A program made the translations under genes and the position numbers. This document shows, in pieces, positions 14,152 through 22,674 of a stretch of 64,000 bases of DNA. The notes under the pieces are model-generated. The model had not been told where the DNA came from. It did no database searches and was given only the letters and a program-made list of their open reading frames with translations. Within the stretch, counting starts at the first letter, position 1. Every line of letters begins with the position of its first letter. Source of the DNA: an uncultured Thermoleophilaceae bacterium (GTDB lineage Bacteria; Actinomycetota; Thermoleophilia; Solirubrobacterales; Thermoleophilaceae); assembly GCA_963778615.1 (NCBI GenBank), contig CAVZVD010000011.1:189915-253914 (forward strand). Direction: 5' to 3'.

Positions 14152-14283
14152 CCGCGCTCTGACGCCAGGGGTTGGCGCCCGCCGACGGGGGTCGGCCTAC
14201 CACGGTTCCTCGCGAATCGCCGCACGGGCGCTGGCCTCTGTTCGGGAGGCTAGGCCCTAGACAGCCGTACAAGCCCTCCCTCC

Positions 14284-14311
14284 GATGTCTGTACACAGGG
14301 CGAAAGACATC
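14284..14311. promoter_or_regulatory. Inverted repeat GATGTCT-N14-AGACATC upstream of amtB (candidate regulator site)
   Basis: Perfect 7-bp arms at 14284-14290 and 14305-14311, 28-55 nt upstream of ATG 14339. A small hairpin TCGGGC-GTA-GCCCGA follows at 14313-14327. Confidence 0.3.
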
Positions 14312-14338: not shown

Positions 14339-15716
14339 ATGGAACCCACGCTCAACGATGCTCTCGGCCGCATCGACACCGTCTGGGTGCTCGTCGCCGG
14401 CATCCTCGTCTTCTTCATGCAGGCCGGCTTCTTGCTGTTGGAGGTCGGGCTTCTCGCGCATGAAGAACGCCGGCACGGTGGTCGCGAAGGTCATCGCCAA
14501 CCTCTCGATCGCGGCGCTCTGCTACTGGGCGGTCGGGTTCGCCCTGGCGTTCGGCGGCACCGGCTGGTTCGCCGGCACCGAGGGCACCTTCCTCGGCACC
14601 ATCGAGCAGTCGGCCTTCCCCGCGATGGAGTTCTCCGCCGCGGCGGTGCCCGCCAAGTTCTTCTTCCAGTTCGCGTTCTGCGCCGTCTCGCTCGCGATCG
14701 TCTGGGGCACCACGCTCGAGCGCATCAAGTTCGGCGCCTACCTCATCTACGCGGTCATCTTCAGCGCGCTGATCTACCCGATCATCAGCCACTGGATCTT
14801 CGGCGGCGGCTGGCTCCAGGTGAACTTCGGCATGCAGGACTTCGCCGGCTCCACGGTGATCCACCTGATCGGGGCCACCGGCGCGCTCGCCGCGCTCCTC
14901 CTGCTCGGCCCGCGCCAGGGCAAGTACGGACGCGACGGCAAGCCCAACGTCATCCCCGGCCACTCCATGCCGCTCGTGGGCCTCGGCGTGCTGATCCTGT
15001 TCGTCGGCTGGTTCGGCTTCAACGCCGGCTCGACCCTGGGCGTGGCCGACGGCCGCTTCGCCGAGGTGGCCATCGTCACCGTGCTCGGCGCCGCCGGCGG
15101 CGTGATGGGCGCCATGGCCACGAGCTGGCTGATCACGCGGACCTTCGACATCGGCATGACCGGCAACGGCGTCATCGCCGGCCTTGTGGGCATCACCGCA
15201 GGCTCCGGCTATGTCGAGTACTGGGCCGCTCTGCCGATCGGGATCGTGGCCGGGATCCTGGTGGTGGTCTGCGTCATCGCGATCGACAAGGTGCTCGACG
15301 ACCCGATCGGCGCGCTCTCCGCGCACGGCGTGGCGGGCGTGTGGGGCACGATCGCCTGCGGCCTCTTCACCGCCCCGCGCCTTGCCGAGTACAACGCGAT
15401 CGGCGAGGGCGGCCTGTTCTACACCGGCTCGGTCGACCAGCTCGCCGCACAGGCGCTCGGCGTGGCCGCGGCGTTCAGCTCGGTGTTCGTGGTCAGCTTC
15501 ATCGTCTTCTTCCTGATCAAGGCCACCTACGGCCTGCGCGTGAAGCCCGAGGAGGAGCGCTACGGACTCGACCTCGTCGAGCACGGCATGTGGGGCTACC
15601 CCGAGCAGTTCATGCCGGTGCCCGGCTCCGAGTACCACCAGCCGGCGGCGCCCGCCCAGCGGCCGACGCCGAGACCGGTGCCGGTCGGGCTGTCGACCAG
15701 GACCCAGGAGAGCTAG
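14339..15716 (+). CDS. amtB: Ammonium transporter AmtB (one frameshift at the GGG run ~14446-14448 as assembled)
   Basis: The N-terminus MEPTLNDALGRIDTVWVLVAGILVFFMQAGFLLLEVG is in the ORF 14339 frame. The rest, FSRMKNAGTVVAKVIANLSIAALCYWAVGFALAFGG...GSTVIHLIGATGALAA...HGVAGVWGTIACGLF, is in ORF 14172..15716. Confidence 0.9.
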
Positions 15717-15725
15717 GAGCCATCC

Positions 15726-16094
15726 ATGAAGAAGATCGAGGCGATCATCCGGCCCGAGCGGCTCCAGGACGTGCAGGACGCGCTCGATGAGCTGGGCGTG
15801 TCCGGCCTCACCGTGTCCGAGGTGATGGGCTGCGGGCGCCAGAAGGGCTACACCGAGCAGTACCGCGGCTCGCGGGCGAACATCTCGCTGCTGCCGAAGC
15901 TCAAGATCGAGTCGGTGGTGTCCACCGAGGTGGTGGACAAGGCCGTCGACGCGATCGTGGGCGCCGCCTACACGGGCGAGATCGGAGACGGGCGGGTGTT
16001 CGTGTATCCGGTCGACCAGTCGGTGCGAATCCGGACCGGCGAACGCGGCGAGGAGACGGTGAGGCACGAGGCGCCCGTGGGCTGGGGCTACTAG
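15726..16094 (+). CDS. glnK: Nitrogen regulatory protein P-II (GlnK type, by linkage to amtB)
   Basis: ORF 15726..16094 (122 aa). MKKIEAIIRPERLQDVQDALDELGVSGLTVSEVMGCGRQKGYTEQYRGS, with the T-loop Tyr present. Confidence 0.95.
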   Translation: MKKIEAIIRPERLQDVQDALDELGVSGLTVSEVMGCGRQKGYTEQYRGSRANISLLPKLKIESVVSTEVVDKAVDAIVGAAYTGEIGDGRVFVYPVDQSVRIRTGERGEETVRHEAPVGWGY

Positions 16095-17179
16095 TGCTCA
16101 GCTGGATACGCGACGTCGTCGCGGATCGCGGCGAGCACGATCCGGTCCCGATCGTCCTGGAGCGCGACGGTCCCGCGAGCAGCGCCTACGCATTCCGCCT
16201 CGGCGTGCGCGCCGGCTACGGCGGCGGCGAGACCGCGCGCATCCCGGTCGGCCGGCGCGTGAACCCCTCCCCCCACCCCATCCTCAAGGAGATCCATCAC
16301 TGCGAGGTGGCCGGCCAGACGCTCGAGGCGGCCAACGTCTACGCGCTGAAGTCCAAGGTCGAGCGGCTGCTCGAGACGATCGCCCCGGCCCGGGCGCTGC
16401 CGCTCTGCTACTTCCGCGCGCCCGCGATGGACTACGAGCTGCCGGTCTACGAGCAGGGCGGCTGGCTCACGACACCGGTGCTGGGCGGCCCGCGAATCCG
16501 CTCGCGCGACCTGGCCGGCATCCGCCGGCAGGTATGCCGCTACCTCGAGGCGGCCGGCTACGTGAGCGACGCCGAGGAGGTGAGTGTCGGAGTCGTGCGC
16601 CCGCGCGACCTCTCGCGCGTGCCGCTGGCAGCGGTGCTGCGCTCGCTCTCGGACTCCGACCTCTGGCTGCCGTGTGTGGAGGGGACTTCCGAGGACGGGC
16701 CGGTTGTGGGCGTCGTCGGCCACGCACCGCAGCTGCGCCGTGACGCCCGGCGCCGGCCCAGCGGCGGTCCCGTGCTGGAGGACACGGCGCCGGCCGCGCC
16801 CGACGTGGTCTCGCTGATCCGCTATCTCCAGACGGAGCTGGGCCGCGCAGGAGAGCTGGCCGCGTGGGGCCTGTACGCCGGCGACGTCCGGCCCGAGATC
16901 TGGGCCGCCGCCCAGGCGCGAGCCGAGGACACCGGCTCCCGCCTGGTCGCCCACCTCACCGACGACGCGTCGACGCGCCTCGAGCTCGAGGTGCGCCGGA
17001 CCGGCGCGGGCGACGTGACGGCCGCGATCGAGGACCGCTGCATCAACGTCTTCCTGGCACCCGACGAGGGCGCCCTGGCCATCCAGGTGGGCCACCACCT
17101 GGCCGGCTCCGAGTTCCTCAGTCAAACGACGGAGGTCGAGATCCATCCCGCAAACGCAGACCAGGAGGTTCACGCATGA
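16094..17179 (+). CDS. Hypothetical protein (361 aa), translationally coupled between glnK and glnA
   Basis: ORF 16094..17179. Its GTG overlaps the glnK TAG (TAGTG) and its stop overlaps the glnA ATG (ATGA). Strong GC3 codon bias in this frame and a balanced amino-acid composition. No domain recognised. Confidence 0.8.
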   Translation: MLSWIRDVVADRGEHDPVPIVLERDGPASSAYAFRLGVRAGYGGGETARIPVGRRVNPSPHPILKEIHHCEVAGQTLEAANVYALKSKVERLLETIAPARALPLCYFRAPAMDYELPVYEQGGWLTTPVLGGPRIRSRDLAGIRRQVCRYLEAAGYVSDAEEVSVGVVRPRDLSRVPLAAVLRSLSDSDLWLPCVEGTSEDGPVVGVVGHAPQLRRDARRRPSGGPVLEDTAPAAPDVVSLIRYLQTELGRAGELAAWGLYAGDVRPEIWAAAQARAEDTGSRLVAHLTDDASTRLELEVRRTGAGDVTAAIEDRCINVFLAPDEGALAIQVGHHLAGSEFLSQTTEVEIHPANADQEVHA

Positions 17180-18652
17180 CGCCGCTCACCGTCGAGCGAT
17201 TCGTCGGCGGACGTGTCGCCGAGGCCAAGGACGTCCTCGCCCTCGCCCAGGAGCACGGCGTGCGGATGGTCGACTTCAAGTTCACCGACCTCCCCGGCAC
17301 CTGGCAGCACCTCGGCCTCTCGATCCACGCGCTCGACGAGGAGGCCTTCGCCGAGGGGCTCGGCTTCGACGGCTCCTCGATCCGCGGCTTCCAGGAGATC
17401 GCGGAGTCGGACATGGTGCTGCTGCCGGACCCGGCGTCGGCGCTGATCGACCCGTTCCACGAGCAGAAGACGATGTCGGTGCTCTGCGACGTGATCGACC
17501 CGATCACCCGCGAGCCCTACAGCCGCGACCCGCGCTACGTGGCGCTCAAGGCCGAGCGCTACCTGGCGGGGACCGGCATCGCCGACACCTGCTTCATGGG
17601 CCCGGAGGCCGAGTTCTACGTGTTCGAGCACGTGGCGTTCGACCAGACCGCCAACCGCGCGTTCTACGAGGTCGACTCGGAGGAGGGCTACTGGAACAGG
17701 GGCCGCGGATTCGGCGCGGAGCGCAACGGGACGCCGAATCTCGGTTACAAGATCCGCTCGCAGCAGGGCTACTTCCCCACCGTCCCCGGGCGACACTCAC
17801 GGCGACCTGCGCGCGCGGATGGTGGTGGCGCTCGAGTCGATGGGGCTGCGCTGCGAGTTCCAGCACCACGAGGTGGGCTCGGCGGGCCAGGCGGAGATCA
17901 ACGTCCGCTTCAACACGCTGCGCAAGATGGCCGACCAGATCCAGCTGCAGAAGTACGTGATCAAGAACGTGGCGAACCAGGCGGGCAAGACGGCCACGTT
18001 CATGCCGAAGCCGCTGTTCGAGGAGAACGGCTCGGGGATGCACGTGCACATGTCGCTGGGGCGCGGCGGCGAGAACCTGATGTTCGACTTCGACGGCTAC
18101 GCCCAGCTGTCGCGCGAGGCGCTGAACTTCATCGGCGGGATCCTGGCCCACGGGCGGGCGCTGATGGCGTTCTGCGCGCCGACCACGAACTCGTACCGCC
18201 GGCTGGTGCCGGGCTACGAGGCGCCGGTGAACCTCGTGTACTCGCAGCGGAACAGGTCGGCGGCGTGCCGGATCCCGGTGTACTCGGCGTCGCCGAAGGC
18301 GAAGCGGGTGGAGTTCCGGCCCCCGGACCCGTCGGCCAACCCGTACCTGGCGTTCTCGGCGCTGCTGATGGCGGGGCTCGACGGGATCCAGAACCGGATC
18401 GACCCGGGCCAGCCCGTCGACGTGGACCTGTTCGAGCTGCCCGAGGAGCAGCTACGGGACATCAAGCACGTGCCGGGCTCGCTGGACGAGGCGCTCGACG
18501 CGCTGGAGGCGGACCACGAGTTCCTGCTGAAGGGCGGCGTGTTCACCCAGGACCTGATCGACACCTGGATCGGCTGGAAGCGCCGCGAGGAGGCGGACCA
18601 GGTGCGGATGCGCCCGCACCCGTGGGAGTTCGCGCTGTACTACGACTCGTAG
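17176..18652 (+). CDS. glnA: Glutamine synthetase type I (one frameshift at CCCCGGG ~17784-17790 as assembled)
   Basis: The N-terminal part [12 protein letters not shown]...[15 protein letters not shown]...GYFPTVP is in the ORF 16864..18684 frame. The rest, [37 protein letters not shown]...[11 protein letters not shown]...[13 protein letters not shown]..., is in ORF 17819..18652. Confidence 0.9.
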
Positions 18653-18720: not shown

Positions 18721-20447
18721 TCAGGTGACCGGCGGCGTCGTGCCGTGCAGCCGGTCGTGCCAGGCGTGTGACCAGGGGATCGCCTTCAGCGCGAGGGCGA
18801 TCACCGAGCCGAGCATGACCCAGGCGGGCCAGAAGTAGCTCGAGCCGCTTGCGATCCAGATCCCGATCACGAACAGGTTCACGATCCCGAGCGTGCCTCC
18901 GGTGGCGATCAGGCGGCGGCGGGTGCTCATCTGGGCGCGGCCGGCGATGAAGCCGCCGGGCGGCTCCGTGTAGACGCGCCAGGCATCCAGGGCGGCGATG
19001 AAGGCCAGGCTGAGGATCGGCCACACCGGCCAGGCGTTCGGCGCGCCGGTGAGGCCCCAGATCGCCAGGATCACGAAGGCGACCGTGCCGAGCGCGATCA
19101 GGCGGTAGCGGAGGCCCCGCCGGCGGCGCTCGGCGAGCGCGCGCAGCTGGTCGTCGGTGAGGGCAGGGCGCTCGGGCGTGACCGGGCCGCCTGCGGGGGC
19201 GTTCAGCGGGATCGTCGCCATCACCGTCGTGCCGCCGCCGGCCGGGCTGTCGATGTCGACGCAGCCGTCCAGCGCGCCCACCCGGTCCTCGAGGCCCTGC
19301 AGCCCCGAGCCGTTGCCGAGATCTGCGCCGCCCACGCCGTCGTCCTTCACGACGACCTCGACCTCCTCCCCCACCACCGTCACGGCGACGGTCGCCTGCG
19401 TGGCCTCCGCGTGCTTGCCGACGTTGGCCAGGCTCTCCGACACGAGGAAGTACACCGCGGCCTCGACCTGGTCCGGCAGCCGCTGCGGCGGCACGGCCAC
19501 GAGCTCGACCGGCACCAAGGCGCGTGAGGACAGGTCGTCGAGCGCCGCGGCGAGGCCGCGGTTGGTGAGCATGGCCGGGTGGATGCCGCGGGCGAGGTCG
19601 CGAAGCTCCTTGAGCGCGAGCCCGGCCTCCTCCCCCGCGCTGCGCACCAGCTCGGCGGCGGCGGGGTCGCCCTCGGCGGCGCGCTTCTCGGCCATGCGGA
19701 GGTTGAGGGAGAGGGCGACGAGGCGCTGCTGGGCGCCGTCGTGGAGGTCGCGCTCGATGCGGCGGCGCTCGGCGTCGGCGGCCTCGATGATGCGGGCGCG
19801 GGCGTCGCGGAGGTCGGACATCTGGGCGGTGACGGCCGGGTCCTCGTTCGAGCCGAGGAGGAGCTCGGCGTAGGCGCCGTAGAAGCGGCCGAGCCAGCCG
19901 AGGGCGGGGATCGCCCACCCAGACGAGGAGCGCGCCGAGCGGGACGAAGGCGAGCGCCTCGCCGATCGTGTCGACCTCGATGAATGGTGATCTGGACGCC
20001 GTCGGGGATGGCCCAGTACCAGAGCGGAAGGGTGAGGCTGCCGACGGCGACGCTCAGGACCGTGACGGCGACGATGAACGAGAGGAGGCCGAAGGGGAAC
20101 TGGAGGAAGAGGAAGGTGAGGTCCTTCCAGGTGGCGGGGTCGGCGAGGCGGGCGCGGAGGCGCTCCCACCAGCCGTGCTCGGGGAGCGGGCGGTAGGGGC
20201 TGGCGATGTGGTTGCCGGTGAGCGCCCCGATGGTCCGCCGCTCGATCTCCGCGAGCCAGCCCCAGGCGTAGACGGAGGCGATCAGGATCGGGATGCCGAT
20301 GAGCGTTACGGCAAGCCCAACGCCGGTCGACAGGGCCGTCACGAGGAAGGTGAACTCGATGACCCCGAAGACGCCGGCGACAAGCAGATACGCGATGCGT
20401 GTGTAGGTACGCGGATCTACGAGATCCCTGTTGAGCCGGGCGATCAC
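18721..20447 (-). CDS. Sensor histidine kinase (HisKA_3/NarL-type) with membrane N-terminal sensor domain and C-terminal 2TM-type extension (at least 2 frameshifts as assembled)
   Basis: The N-terminus MIARLNRDLVDPRTYTRIAYLLVAGVFGVIEFTFLV... is in ORF 19380..20447. The frame changes near 19975 and 19915. The core ...AERRRIERDLHDGAQQRLVAL...GIHPAMLTNRGL...SESLANVGKHAEA...DDGVGGAD...GLQGLEDRV, plus C-terminal TM helices, is in ORF 18721..20169. Confidence 0.85.
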
Positions 20448-20518
20448 GAGATCAAATGTATGGCGGGTGCGACGGGCGGTCCATACGGGCAGCCGTACCT
20501 GGCGGTACGGTGCCCCGA

Positions 20519-21338
20519 ATGCGGGGCCTGCGTATCGCGATTGGAGTAGGGCTGGTCGGCCGTGGTGGCCGCGGCGGACGGCGAGCGCCGCGGTGCCGGC
20601 GCCGAGCGCGCGCGGAGCGCGCGCCCGCGGAACGCTCCGCGGCTGCGCGGCAGGCGGACGCGTTCCCCGCCGGTCGATCGATTCGGGCGGTGCGCGCCTT
20701 CGTCCGCCGGCGCGCCACCAGCTCCTTCGCGCTGATCGACTCGCGCGGCCGCCTCCACGGCTACCAGGCGCGGCGGCGCTACGCCTCGGGCAGCATCGTG
20801 AAGCTCATGCTGCTGGTCGCGTACCTGCGGCGGCTCGAGGGGCGCATGCCGCCGCCCGGCGGACCAGCAGCTGCTCCACACGATGATCGTGCTGTCGGGC
20901 AACAAGGTGGCGTCGATCATCCAGGGGAAGGTCGGGACCGCGGCGCTGTGGGAGGTCGCCCGGGATGCCGGGATGCGCGACTTCTCGGTCTCCGGCAGCT
21001 GGGGCTCCTCGCTCATCAGCGCGGCCGACCAGGCCCGCTTCTTCCGCCGCTTCGACGGCATGATCCCGGCCGGCACGCGCGACTACGCGCGCGAGCTGAT
21101 GTCGTCGATCGACCGTCGCCAGCGCTGGGGGTTCCCGCGCCCCGCGCTCGACCTCGGCTTCGAGGCGTTCTTCAAGATCGGCTGGCGCGGCACGGCGACC
21201 GGGCGGCTCGTCAATGCCGTGGGGATGTTCGAGCGGGATGGCGAGCGGGTGTCGCTCGCCGTGCTCACCGACGGCAACCCCTCGCATGACTACGGGACGG
21301 ACACGATTCGCGGCGCGGCCGAGCGGGCTTTCAGGGGG
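20519..21338 (+). CDS. Class A beta-lactamase-like serine hydrolase (frameshift near 20855; N-terminus uncertain; no stop before the next domain)
   Basis: SxxK in RRYASGSIVKLMLLVAYLRRLEG (ORF 20456 frame). SGN and KIG motifs in ADQQLLHTMIVLSGNKVASII...FFKIGWRGTATGRLVNAVGMFERDGERVSLAVLTDGN (ORF 20883 frame). Confidence 0.7.
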
Positions 21339-21948
21339 GTGCCGGCGGCCCCAGCCCAAGAGCTCGCCGGCTCCCCCGCCCACCGCCGCGCCGGCCTCGT
21401 CGACGTCCACCGCTACGCCCCCGGCATCGGCCTCGACATCACGCTACGCGGGCAAGGACAACATCACGGGCCGGCGGCTTCCGGGCTACTGCGAGGAATG
21501 GGCGCTCATGCTCGACCCGGCCGCCCGCGACCTCGGCCGCGTGCAGCGCTACCTGCGCCGCCGGAACAGAGGCCTCCTGATCCTCGACGCCTACCGCCCC
21601 GCCCGCGCCACCCGCGCGCTGGTCAGCTGGGCCGAGCGCACCGGCCGCGGCCACCTGGTGGGCACCTACATCGCGCGAAGAAGCCGCCACAACCTCGGCA
21701 GCGCCGTGGACCTCACGCTCGTCCGCGCCTCGGACGGCAAGCGCCTCAGGATGGGCCGCTACGACGCGCTCGGCCCCGGCGCCCACACCTTCGACGCCAC
21801 CGGCGCCGTGCTGCGCAACCGGCTCGCCCTGAAGGACGCCATGGAGCGCTTCGGCTTCACCAACTACTGGCGCGAGTGGTGGCACTACGAGCACCGGCTG
21901 ACCGGCACCACCTACCTGGACCTCCCGCTCGGCTGCGGGAAGCGCTAG
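21339..21948 (+). CDS. D-alanyl-D-alanine dipeptidase (VanX/DdpX, M15D family); frameshift near 21440; may be fused to the upstream hydrolase
   Basis: LVDVHRYAPGIGLDI is in the ORF 20883 frame. RYAGKDNITGRRLPGY...LLILDAYRPARATRALVSW...SRHNLGSAVDLTLV...FTNYWREWWHYEH is in ORF 21214..21948. In-frame GTG 21339 is a possible separate start. Confidence 0.8.
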
Positions 21949-22259
21949 CCGCCCACCGACTCCTTCAGGTCCGCCGCGAACGTCGTGTAGTCGTAGATCG
22001 GCAGCGCCTCGGTCTTCACCGTCGCGCCCATCTCAACGATGATCGGCAGGCCCGACAGGGCGCGGTCGAGCGTCTCGGCGTCCGGGAAGTCGCACACCGC
22101 CAGCACCACGCGCTGACCGGACACCTTCCAGGCGTGCTTGATTGCGCCCGCATCCATCGCCCCGAGGGCGGCGTCGGCCTCGCGATCCCACATCTCGATC
22201 AGCTCGCGATTCGACATGTGGTCCGCCTGGCGGACGTCGAAGCGCACGAAGAACAGCAT
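21945..22259 (-). CDS. Muconolactone delta-isomerase-like protein
   Basis: ORF 21945..22259 (104 aa). MLFFVRFDVRQADHMSNRELIEMWDREADAALGAMDAGAIKHAWKVSGQRVVLAVCDFPDAETLDRALSGLPI resembles the CatC/MIase fold family, from memory. Confidence 0.7.
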   Translation of the reverse strand: MLFFVRFDVRQADHMSNRELIEMWDREADAALGAMDAGAIKHAWKVSGQRVVLAVCDFPDAETLDRALSGLPIIVEMGATVKTEALPIYDYTTFAADLKESVGG

Positions 22260-22263
22260 TGGC

Positions 22264-22674
22264 TCAACCCTCCTGGTCCTGCGGCGTCTCGAAGGCGCCG
22301 TCGATCAGCTCGATGCGATACCCGTCCGGATCCTGCACGAAGCAGATGCGGAACTCCTCGCGCCCGCCCGGGTGGTACGGCGGCTTCTCCGGCTCGATCC
22401 CGGCCGCGGCCAGCCGCGAGAGCATGCCGTCGAGGTCCTCCACGGACAGCGCGATGTGCCCGTAGCCGCCGCCCAGGTCGTACGGCTCGGTCCGGTCCTC
22501 GTTGACGGTGAGCTCGAGCGTGTCGCCGTCGCCAGGCAGGCCGAGGTAGACGTTGTAGGCCCCCTCGAACTGGAGCCTCCCGCGCCGCTCGTAGCCGAGC
22601 GCCTCGTAGAAGCGCAGCGAGGCGTCGATGTCCCGCACGCGCATGTTGGTGTGGACGTGTCGCATGCGCGGCAT
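22264..22674 (-). CDS. VOC-family protein (glyoxalase I-like)
   Basis: C-terminal 136 aa of ORF 22264..22887, from ATG 22674. MPRMRHVHTNMRVRDIDASLRFYEALGYERRGRLQFEGAYNVYLGLPGDGDTLELTVN...GYGHIALSVEDLD...FVQDPDGYRIELI. Confidence 0.85.
   Translation of the reverse strand: MPRMRHVHTNMRVRDIDASLRFYEALGYERRGRLQFEGAYNVYLGLPGDGDTLELTVNEDRTEPYDLGGGYGHIALSVEDLDGMLSRLAAAGIEPEKPPYHPGGREEFRICFVQDPDGYRIELIDGAFETPQDQEG

Follow-up and report, generated by a model that had tools for sequence, protein, structure and literature searches.

Introduction

Nitrogen control in prokaryotes centers on PII proteins, the ammonium transporter AmtB and glutamine synthetase (GS), and new proteins that partner directly with them are seldom found. 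In Streptomyces, Corynebacterium and Mycobacterium, all belonging to the Actinomycetales, amtB, glnK and glnD form an operon (PMC3612183). Here we analyze a gene, termed X, that follows amtB and glnK in a stretch of 64,000 nucleotides (the window) from an uncultured Thermoleophilaceae bacterium (NCBI GenBank assembly GCA_963778615.1, contig CAVZVD010000011.1, positions 189,915 to 253,914 of the forward strand). In the window X is located between glnK, encoding a PII protein, and glnA, encoding GS. We find that X represents a new protein family and that it is highly probable to be a functional part of the AmtB/GlnK/GS module for ammonium uptake and assimilation.

GlnD uridylylates or adenylylates PII at Tyr51 of the T-loop. 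DraG in Azospirillum and TnrA in Bacillus are partners of AmtB-GlnK in membrane sequestration, and PipX is a PII-binding adaptor in cyanobacteria. AmtB exposes its C-terminus to the cytoplasm, where it forms part of the GlnK-binding surface. Amt proteins with a fused C-terminal signaling domain are also known, e.g., the ammonium sensor histidine kinase of 'Ca. Kuenenia'. Thermoleophilia are among the most abundant soil actinobacteria. For Methanosarcina mazei, two reports describe a GlnK1-GS complex and a small protein inhibiting Amt, i.e., regulation by direct protein contact and not by covalent modification (PMC10651883, PMC10714827). The flotillin-associated rhodopsin cluster, cited in PMC12379486, is a precedent for a flotillin dedicated to one membrane client.

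Results

X Is a Real Gene of a New Family

The product of X has 361 amino acids, a mass of 38.9 kDa and an isoelectric point of 5.4, and is thus acidic. The GC content at the three codon positions is 0.78, 0.51, and 0.91, respectively. Comparison with nine homologous genes gave ratios of non-synonymous to synonymous substitution (dN/dS; Nei-Gojobori) of 0.17-0.29, which reveals purifying selection. A word-indexed search of 5.8 billion proteins identified at least 625 homologs at E ≤ 1e-3. Among the matches listed, 120 homologs were 66-89% identical to X, all named matches were annotated 'hypothetical protein' and all named sources were metagenome-assembled genomes (MAGs) of Thermoleophilaceae. 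With phmmer, an exhaustive search of 1.84 billion cluster representatives yielded 99 matches, among them relatives down to 25-35% identity. Cluster look-ups found no isolate among the sources of the family; every named source was a MAG, and all sequences of the family are metagenomic in origin. The conservation and the dN/dS values rule out that X is a spurious open reading frame (ORF) of GC-rich DNA. X is a real gene of a new family, and its coding nature, claimed in a preliminary description of the window from the third-position GC bias, was confirmed.

A comparison of X with Pfam and NCBIfam gave no match at E ≤ 1 except for noise at 12 bits. The matches in question, to Dak1 and PRK14479 (E 0.04-0.07), were rejected since 12 bits fall far short of the cut-offs (31 and 492). 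In the same databases, 51 diverse members of the family were likewise without a match at E ≤ 0.01, which agrees with the earlier statement that X contains no recognizable domain. The same domain library picked up GlnE and GlnD_UR_UTase in locus L009 (L and P numbers denote loci and proteins, respectively). The features of GlnD, i.e., nucleotidyltransferase, GlnD_UR_UTase (PF08335), HD and ACT, were not found in X or in the 51 members, and these members carried no kinase or phosphatase signature. Pfam gave no match of X to the NfeD domain (PF01957) and none to helix-turn-helix or other DNA-binding families. With respect to PII (PF00543), hmmscan was negative and an hhalign comparison of the X profile with a GlnK profile gave a probability of 0.15%. 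No match to the PipX or DraG families was found in Pfam-A, the presence of each family in that copy being unchecked by accession. A nucleotide-binding motif was not recognized in the family by eye, without a dedicated scan. The maximum of the Kyte-Doolittle hydropathy over 19 residues was 0.85, and X therefore has no transmembrane segment; the protein is predicted to be soluble.

Structure prediction with AlphaFold2 gave confident models for X [33-sequence alignment; predicted local distance difference test (pLDDT) 81, predicted template modeling score (pTM) 0.78] and for the distant member P0170 (51-sequence alignment; pLDDT 93.3, pTM 0.90). The two models have the same predicted topology of four successive modules, each of which is a 4-5-stranded beta-meander followed by a helix. 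Foldseek searches with the two models against 350,542 PDB chains gave best E values of 0.025 and 0.016, with a whole-query template modeling (TM) score of about 0.15, and the viral structure library BFVD gave no match; the novelty of the fold was judged against these two collections. Matches to PH, Tudor, clamp, and FACT structures recurred, all at a probability of 0.2 or less. No PH-like, PUR/Whirly-like or sliding-clamp-like fold reached a Foldseek probability above 0.5 with a TM score above 0.4 over the domain, and Foldseek gave no ACT-like or HD-like structure for the models. The structural check proposed along with the preliminary description has thus returned models without a counterpart in PDB. 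Sequence profile searches of PDB matched de novo designed TIM barrels (E 8e-5). These matches were rejected as a compositional artefact of a helix region rich in Ala, Arg, Glu, and Leu; they were gone with the broader profile (alignment A7) and had no Foldseek support. All other matches in these searches were insignificant.

Comparison by hhalign aligned module 2 with module 4 at a probability of 93% (E 2e-7) and with module 3 at 80%, while the N-terminal half of X aligned with the C-terminal half at 92% (E 6.5e-7). Judged by these alignments the modules are true internal repeats. The strongest conserved motif of the family, KEI(H/Y)xxE(V/I)AGxxLExxN, is found in module 1 (LEAAN at 16322-16336 in the window). 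Its residues E78 and N81 were invariant or nearly so in three alignments (A1, A2, and A7), and they were conserved when X was aligned with distant clades. Invariant residues of the family are few and mostly structural, the polar ones being E78, N81, D172, and R55. In the model the conserved polar motif is located at a strand-helix junction. An Arg-rich loop in module 3 (residues 208-236; 16715-16801; HAPQLRRDARRRPSGGPVLEDTAPAAP) varies in length and has a pLDDT below 50 at residues 217-230. It is missing entirely from P0014, P0031, and L016 and is therefore dispensable for the fold of X.

X Is Linked to amtB and glnK across Phyla

Loci were gathered by homology to X alone, and AmtB, GlnK, flotillin and GS were subsequently mapped by tblastn. 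The 84 non-redundant loci originated from ten contigs with close X homologs or Chloroflexota relatives, from a scan that took one genome for each GTDB species (31 loci, all in Thermoleophilia MAGs of Thermoleophilaceae, Solirubrobacteraceae, and Solirubrobacterales) and from a metagenome scan for which a distant clade served as seed (43 loci), with two further look-ups added.

The gene directly upstream of X was glnK in 76 of the 80 loci with an upstream flank, and amtB preceded glnK in 62 of 63 loci. Of 70 loci, 58 had a flotillin gene (PF01145 and PF15975) directly downstream of X and nine had glnA there. The gene following flotillin was glnA in all 38 readable loci; the script count was 38/41, and in the remaining three a second flotillin fragment was listed because the gene is frameshifted. 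These counts define amtB-glnK-X-flotillin-glnA as the canonical operon of Thermoleophilia. In this operon the X stop and the flotillin start overlap by 10 nt in most Thermoleophilaceae loci, and the flotillin stop and the glnA start overlap by 4 nt. The linkage of X to glnK, amtB and glnA, which had been proposed from the window alone, was thus kept in the 84 loci and across phyla; a conserved linkage to glnK/glnA in other genomes was what the preliminary description had set as its test. The direct linkage of X to glnA is true for the window. Most relatives have a flotillin gene in between, however, and the junction in the window is a derived deletion.

Chloroflexota relatives of X, with about 20-27% identity, were found in the orders amtB-X-flotillin-glnA-glnA or amtB-X, with no glnK in between; the names met here were Caldilineales, Anaerolineae, and Dehalococcoidia. 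A clade with a GC content of 0.61 has the order amtB-glnK-X-glnA, and its AmtB is 35-38% identical to that of Thermoleophilia. On the 172-kb contig L086 (5171-9592), a gene of 103 amino acids is followed by glnK-X-flotillin-glnA without an adjacent amtB. The 103-residue protein had no Pfam match. This contig is probably archaeal, since its neighboring genes include an archaeosine-type TGT+PUA gene, with AsnC and RHH also nearby. Members of the family were also found in Desulfobaccales and Thermodesulfobacteriota. Across phyla the steadiest partner of X was found to be amtB and/or glnK rather than GS. The X of the window displays both features by which the family was delimited, i.e., full-length homology including the motif and a position 3' of glnK/amtB and 5' of (flotillin-)glnA.

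The proteins P0211 and P0271 (748 and 753 amino acids) consist of AmtB (PF00909, residues 14-416), a Pro/Ala-rich linker and an X-like domain. One such fusion (L088, 302-2563, on a 5-kb contig) had no glnK, flotillin gene or glnA nearby. The fusions tie the X family to ammonium transport independently of synteny and, as the C-terminus of AmtB is cytoplasmic, they would place the X module at the GlnK-binding face. In the P0204 cluster (Thermodesulfobacteriota, 465 amino acids) an X-like domain is joined to a C-terminal PDC/Cache-type sensor domain. The NCBI label of P0204 is only 'PDC sensor domain-containing protein', and no membrane segment was noticed on reading its sequence, without a hydropathy scan. 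Synteny across phyla together with the fusion to AmtB make it highly probable that X is functionally part of the AmtB/GlnK/GS module.

The Window Lineage Has Lost Flotillin and the X Tail

In the lineage of the window a flotillin gene of about 1.3 kb between X and glnA was lost (compare L004, 7040-7160), and X also lacks about 16 codons of its tail (EPPRAERLGVESIRAH). The independent short-read contigs L006 and L007, both with an intact glnA, share the X-glnA junction and the C-terminus of X with the window, which rules out misassembly as the origin of the junction. The arrangement is consistent with a clean excision of the flotillin ORF, whereby the old flotillin Shine-Dalgarno and start region would now serve glnA. 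Independently, flotillin and the tail motif also disappeared from another Thermoleophilia clade, L027 and L030, which is more distant. At least three lineages without a flotillin gene, that of the window included, have kept X under purifying selection. Locus L066 has lost flotillin and retained the tail motif.

The tail motif PRAERLxxESI(R/W) was present in all flotillin-linked X proteins of Thermoleophilia, with ERLDPDSIW as its form in more divergent members. Searched for as a regular expression, the motif was found in 50 of 52 flotillin-linked X proteins and in one of eight from loci without flotillin (Fisher p = 7e-7, kinship ignored). The two flotillin-linked exceptions were L037, which is frameshifted, and the Chloroflexota protein of L010, which has its own tail motif, SILDRLL. 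From this distribution we infer that the tail may contact flotillin.

GlnK and GS of the Thermoleophilia Operons Lack the Classical Modification Sites

All X-linked GlnK proteins of Thermoleophilia have the T-loop sequence YRGS(R/Q)AN with Ser49 present, Ala or Val at position 51 and no Tyr51. The GlnK of the window has Ser49 and Ala51 (T-loop region 15834-15890). Ser49 was not conserved in the distant clades. Also common to all X-linked GlnK proteins of Thermoleophilia, and absent from the distant clades, is a C-terminal extension of 10 amino acids, RH(E/Q)xP(V/A)GWGY (RHEAPVGWGY at 16062-16091 in the window).

The linked GS is closest to the GSI-beta enzyme of Mycobacterium tuberculosis (1HTO, E 3e-113). 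In the window the Tyr that is adenylylated is replaced by Phe (18431-18433; DLFELP compared to DLYELP in M. tuberculosis), and Phe was found at this position in all 18 Thermoleophilia loci with a recovered GS motif, the window included. With a GlnK that lacks Tyr51 and a GS that carries Phe, there are no targets of the GlnD/GlnE type in the X operons of Thermoleophilia. The missing sites agree with the fact that glnD is not at its usual place in the operon; they do not prove that X took over the role of GlnD.

Organization of the Operon in the Window

The order amtB-glnK-X-glnA, stated in the preliminary description, was borne out by the ORF map and the raw sequence (Table 1). So was the translational coupling of X: its start codon GTG (16094-16096) shares one base with the glnK stop codon TAG (16092-16094) in TAGTG, and its stop codon TGA (17177-17179) overlaps the glnA start codon ATG (17176-17178) in ATGA. 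The Shine-Dalgarno sequence of glnA lies within the final codons of X. Neither the ORF map nor the raw sequence contained an in-frame start for X further upstream. A terminator scan gave three intragenic matches at chance level and none that was convincing between amtB, glnK, X, and glnA. Rfam and tRNA scans of the window gave no matches. A gene for a HisKA_3 sensor kinase with a 2TM domain (18721-20169, reverse strand) follows glnA directly and is convergent to it, so the operon ends at glnA. A HisKA_3 kinase gene is likewise found after glnA in L001, L004, and L005.

Table 1. Positions of the operon genes, of the modules of X and of a candidate operator within the window.
Feature	Position	Strand	Remarks
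Candidate operator GTACAAG-N17-TGTACA-N6-GAAAGAC	14267-14308	+	30-70 nt upstream of the amtB start; putative function
amtB	14339-15716	+	Ammonium transporter, first gene of the operon; tblastn 92-96% identity to L004 AmtB, in two frames; PF00909 in homologs
glnK (PII), 122 aa	15726-16094	+	PF00543, E = 9e-31
Gene X, 361 aa	16094-17179	+	New family; no Pfam, NCBIfam or PDB fold match
X module 1, residues 16-98	16139-16387	+	Four strands and helix (AlphaFold2); most conserved family motif
X module 2, residues 99-158	16388-16567	+	Beta-meander and helix repeat; hhalign to modules 4 and 3
X module 3, residues 159-256	16568-16861	+	Contains the Arg-rich disordered loop
X module 4, residues 257-352	16862-17149	+	Repeat homologous to module 2
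X C-terminal tail, truncated	17150-17179	+	Without PRAERLxxESI(R/W); holds AGGAGG (17163-17168)
glnA	17176-18652	+	GSI-beta-type glutamine synthetase; tblastn in two frames; best PDB match 1HTO

As noted before, X is uninterrupted in an indel-prone assembly. Both amtB and glnA carry an insertion of one nucleotide that splits the gene into two frames, at about 14450 (14448-14452; an extra G in a G-run compared to L012) and at about 17785 (17777-17790; compared to the intact gene of L006), respectively. Such single-base insertions are likely to be long-read consensus errors rather than signs of pseudogenes. A downstream beta-lactamase/peptidase_M15 gene (20456-22505) also looks split and is a single gene of 557 amino acids in L001.

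The sequence upstream of amtB contains a motif that was kept in 14 upstream regions of amtB from Thermoleophilaceae, where its flanks have diverged. The pattern occurs once in the window and was found in none of 100 shuffles. The consensus of the actinobacterial GlnR box is gTnAc-n6-GaAAc, and the motif is reminiscent of it but not identical. We consider it a candidate operator for a nitrogen regulator.

In some Thermoleophilaceae a glutamine-dependent NAD synthetase gene (CN_hydrolase and NAD_synthase) is found just 3' of glnA (L002, 12113-13882; L001, 16383-17134). Since this enzyme is a reported PII target (PMC7196632), the neighborhood of glnA may hold another PII-controlled enzyme.

Discussion

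The repeat architecture of X, its few invariant polar residues, the lack of a catalytic signature, the fusion to AmtB and the joint loss of tail and flotillin lead us to favor, tentatively, a role of X as a cytoplasmic adaptor or regulator without enzymatic activity. By docking on AmtB or the AmtB-GlnK complex from the cytoplasmic side, X would couple the channel to GS. In most lineages the C-terminal tail motif of X might also couple it to a membrane scaffold of flotillin, so that a single membrane site could serve to assimilate imported NH3 or to gate its uptake. Among Thermoleophilia such a protein-protein layer would take the place of the GlnD used by other actinobacteria. For X itself, we infer the binding partners, the direction of the regulation and the absence of catalysis.

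Several observations weigh against an adaptor of this kind. The conserved LExxN, D172, and R55 could form a catalytic or ligand-binding site. The direct partner of X is ambiguous, because the Chloroflexota loci have no glnK next to X and the archaeal-like locus has no amtB next to it. The loss of Tyr51 from GlnK and of the Tyr from GS is not family-wide, as GS of Chloroflexota (L009 and L010) and of L044 keep the Tyr and L009 has GlnE nearby. The correlation between tail and flotillin was calculated without phylogenetic correction and, as the tail overlaps the ribosome-binding region of flotillin, part of its conservation could lie at the mRNA level.

Alternatively, X could sense a small molecule, such as glutamine, 2-oxoglutarate or another sign of ammonium status, and gate AmtB or GS allosterically, as a GlnK-like regulator that replaces or supplements GlnK. 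The amtB-X order of Chloroflexota with no glnK in between would fit this, and in the AmtB-X fusions the X domain sits where a tethered regulator would. The ligand-binding PDC/Cache domain fused to an X-like domain in Thermodesulfobacteriota and the conserved polar motif at the strand-helix junction point the same way. We nevertheless consider a sensor unlikely, since X is not homologous to PII, Foldseek detected no known ligand-binding fold and the presence of glnK next to X in nearly all loci means that X is not a general replacement for GlnK.

It is quite improbable that X is an enzyme that modifies or demodifies GlnK, e.g., at Ser49 of the T-loop, or GS, and thereby replaces GlnD/GlnE functionally without being homologous. 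As the preliminary description stated, X occupies the slot held by glnD in the Actinomycetales operon (PMC3612183); the domains of GlnD were not found in it. The slot, the retention of Ser49 in a Thermoleophilia GlnK that lacks Tyr51 and the invariant polar residues E78, N81, D172, and R55 are what could be expected of a modifying enzyme. However, the 51 members contained no nucleotidyltransferase, kinase, phosphatase or HD signature, Foldseek found no likeness to the fold of any enzyme, and a repeat architecture is typical of scaffolds. Furthermore, Chloroflexota have X without an adjacent glnK, one AmtB-X fusion stands alone and Ser49 is not conserved in distant clades. The earlier proposal of X as a candidate PII- or GS-associated factor therefore stands for the association, through the 84 loci, the synteny across phyla and the AmtB-X fusions, whereas two of the mechanisms then offered, modification of PII and inactivation of GS, found no support.

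Very improbable is a role of X mainly as a flotillin accessory, i.e., a functional analog of NfeD that is linked to nitrogen genes only since flotillin serves AmtB. The 10-nt overlap of X and flotillin in most Thermoleophilaceae loci and the covariation of the tail motif with flotillin would be explained, but X persists under purifying selection where flotillin is missing, in at least three lineages, contains neither an NfeD domain nor a membrane segment, and is fused to AmtB and not to flotillin. That X regulates its operon by binding nucleic acid is hardly credible: the pattern of a four-stranded meander and a helix fits beta-beta-beta-beta-alpha units of the PUR/Whirly/PC4 type and one weak Foldseek match to PURA was seen (rank 37, probability 0.06), but this match is insignificant (TM score 0.12), X is acidic, no helix-turn-helix or other DNA-binding family was detected, and binding of DNA or RNA would be surprising in a domain that can be fused to the C-terminus of a membrane channel.

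The adaptor reading can be extended to a more far-reaching version, which we regard as doubtful. X and flotillin would assemble AmtB, GlnK, and GS into an 'ammonium assimilation metabolon' in a membrane microdomain, where X, as an effector with a new fold, would read the state of GlnK/AmtB and switch GS, the channel or both. A protein scaffold would here be the alternative to the covalent GlnD/GlnE cascade, and it would be old enough for Actinomycetota, Chloroflexota, Thermodesulfobacteriota and probably Archaea to have it in common.

The finding matters in several respects. A family without a relative in sequence or structure is embedded in the nitrogen-control core of Thermoleophilia and of at least three other lineages. 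X is a concrete candidate for the regulation of ammonium uptake and GS in organisms without the classical modification sites on GlnK and GS, and also for the question of a physical coupling between AmtB and GS. The operon link would furthermore give bacterial flotillins a defined client.

Comparison with Known Systems

The operon of the window begins like amtB-glnK-glnD, with amtB and then glnK, and in both a co-transcribed third gene follows that is presumed to act on PII/AmtB (PMC3612183). It differs in that X has no NTP-transferase, HD or ACT domain and has a different fold, in that the operon runs on into (flotillin and) glnA, and in that GlnK lacks Tyr51. Like the Amt-kinase of 'Ca. Kuenenia', P0211 and P0271 combine an Amt module with a cytoplasmic C-terminal domain, but the domain fused here is an X module and not a kinase or GGDEF domain. 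With the flotillin operons, i.e., floT/yuaG with nfeD and the rhodopsin clusters, the X operon shares a flotillin gene that is translationally coupled to a partner gene; here the partner is X instead of NfeD, and the client set is AmtB/GlnK/GS. In the literature we found no description of amtB, glnK or GS linked to flotillin, and none of the X family.

DraG, TnrA and PipX act through docking on PII or AmtB-GlnK, which is the mode proposed here for X, although X has no sequence or fold relation to them (no Pfam match). To our knowledge the genes of the three do not lie between glnK and glnA, and none of these proteins is fused to AmtB or linked with flotillin. The regulators of M. mazei are GlnK itself or proteins of fewer than 70 amino acids (PMC10651883, PMC10714827), whereas members of the X family have 320-390 amino acids in four modules and belong to a different family. 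By analogy, X would be closest in working principle to the partners sequestered by AmtB-GlnK and to the Methanosarcina regulators that act on GS and Amt by protein-protein contact. We rate both the X family and the module amtB-glnK-X-flotillin-glnA as new, with a resemblance to amtB-glnK-glnD that is one of layout only.

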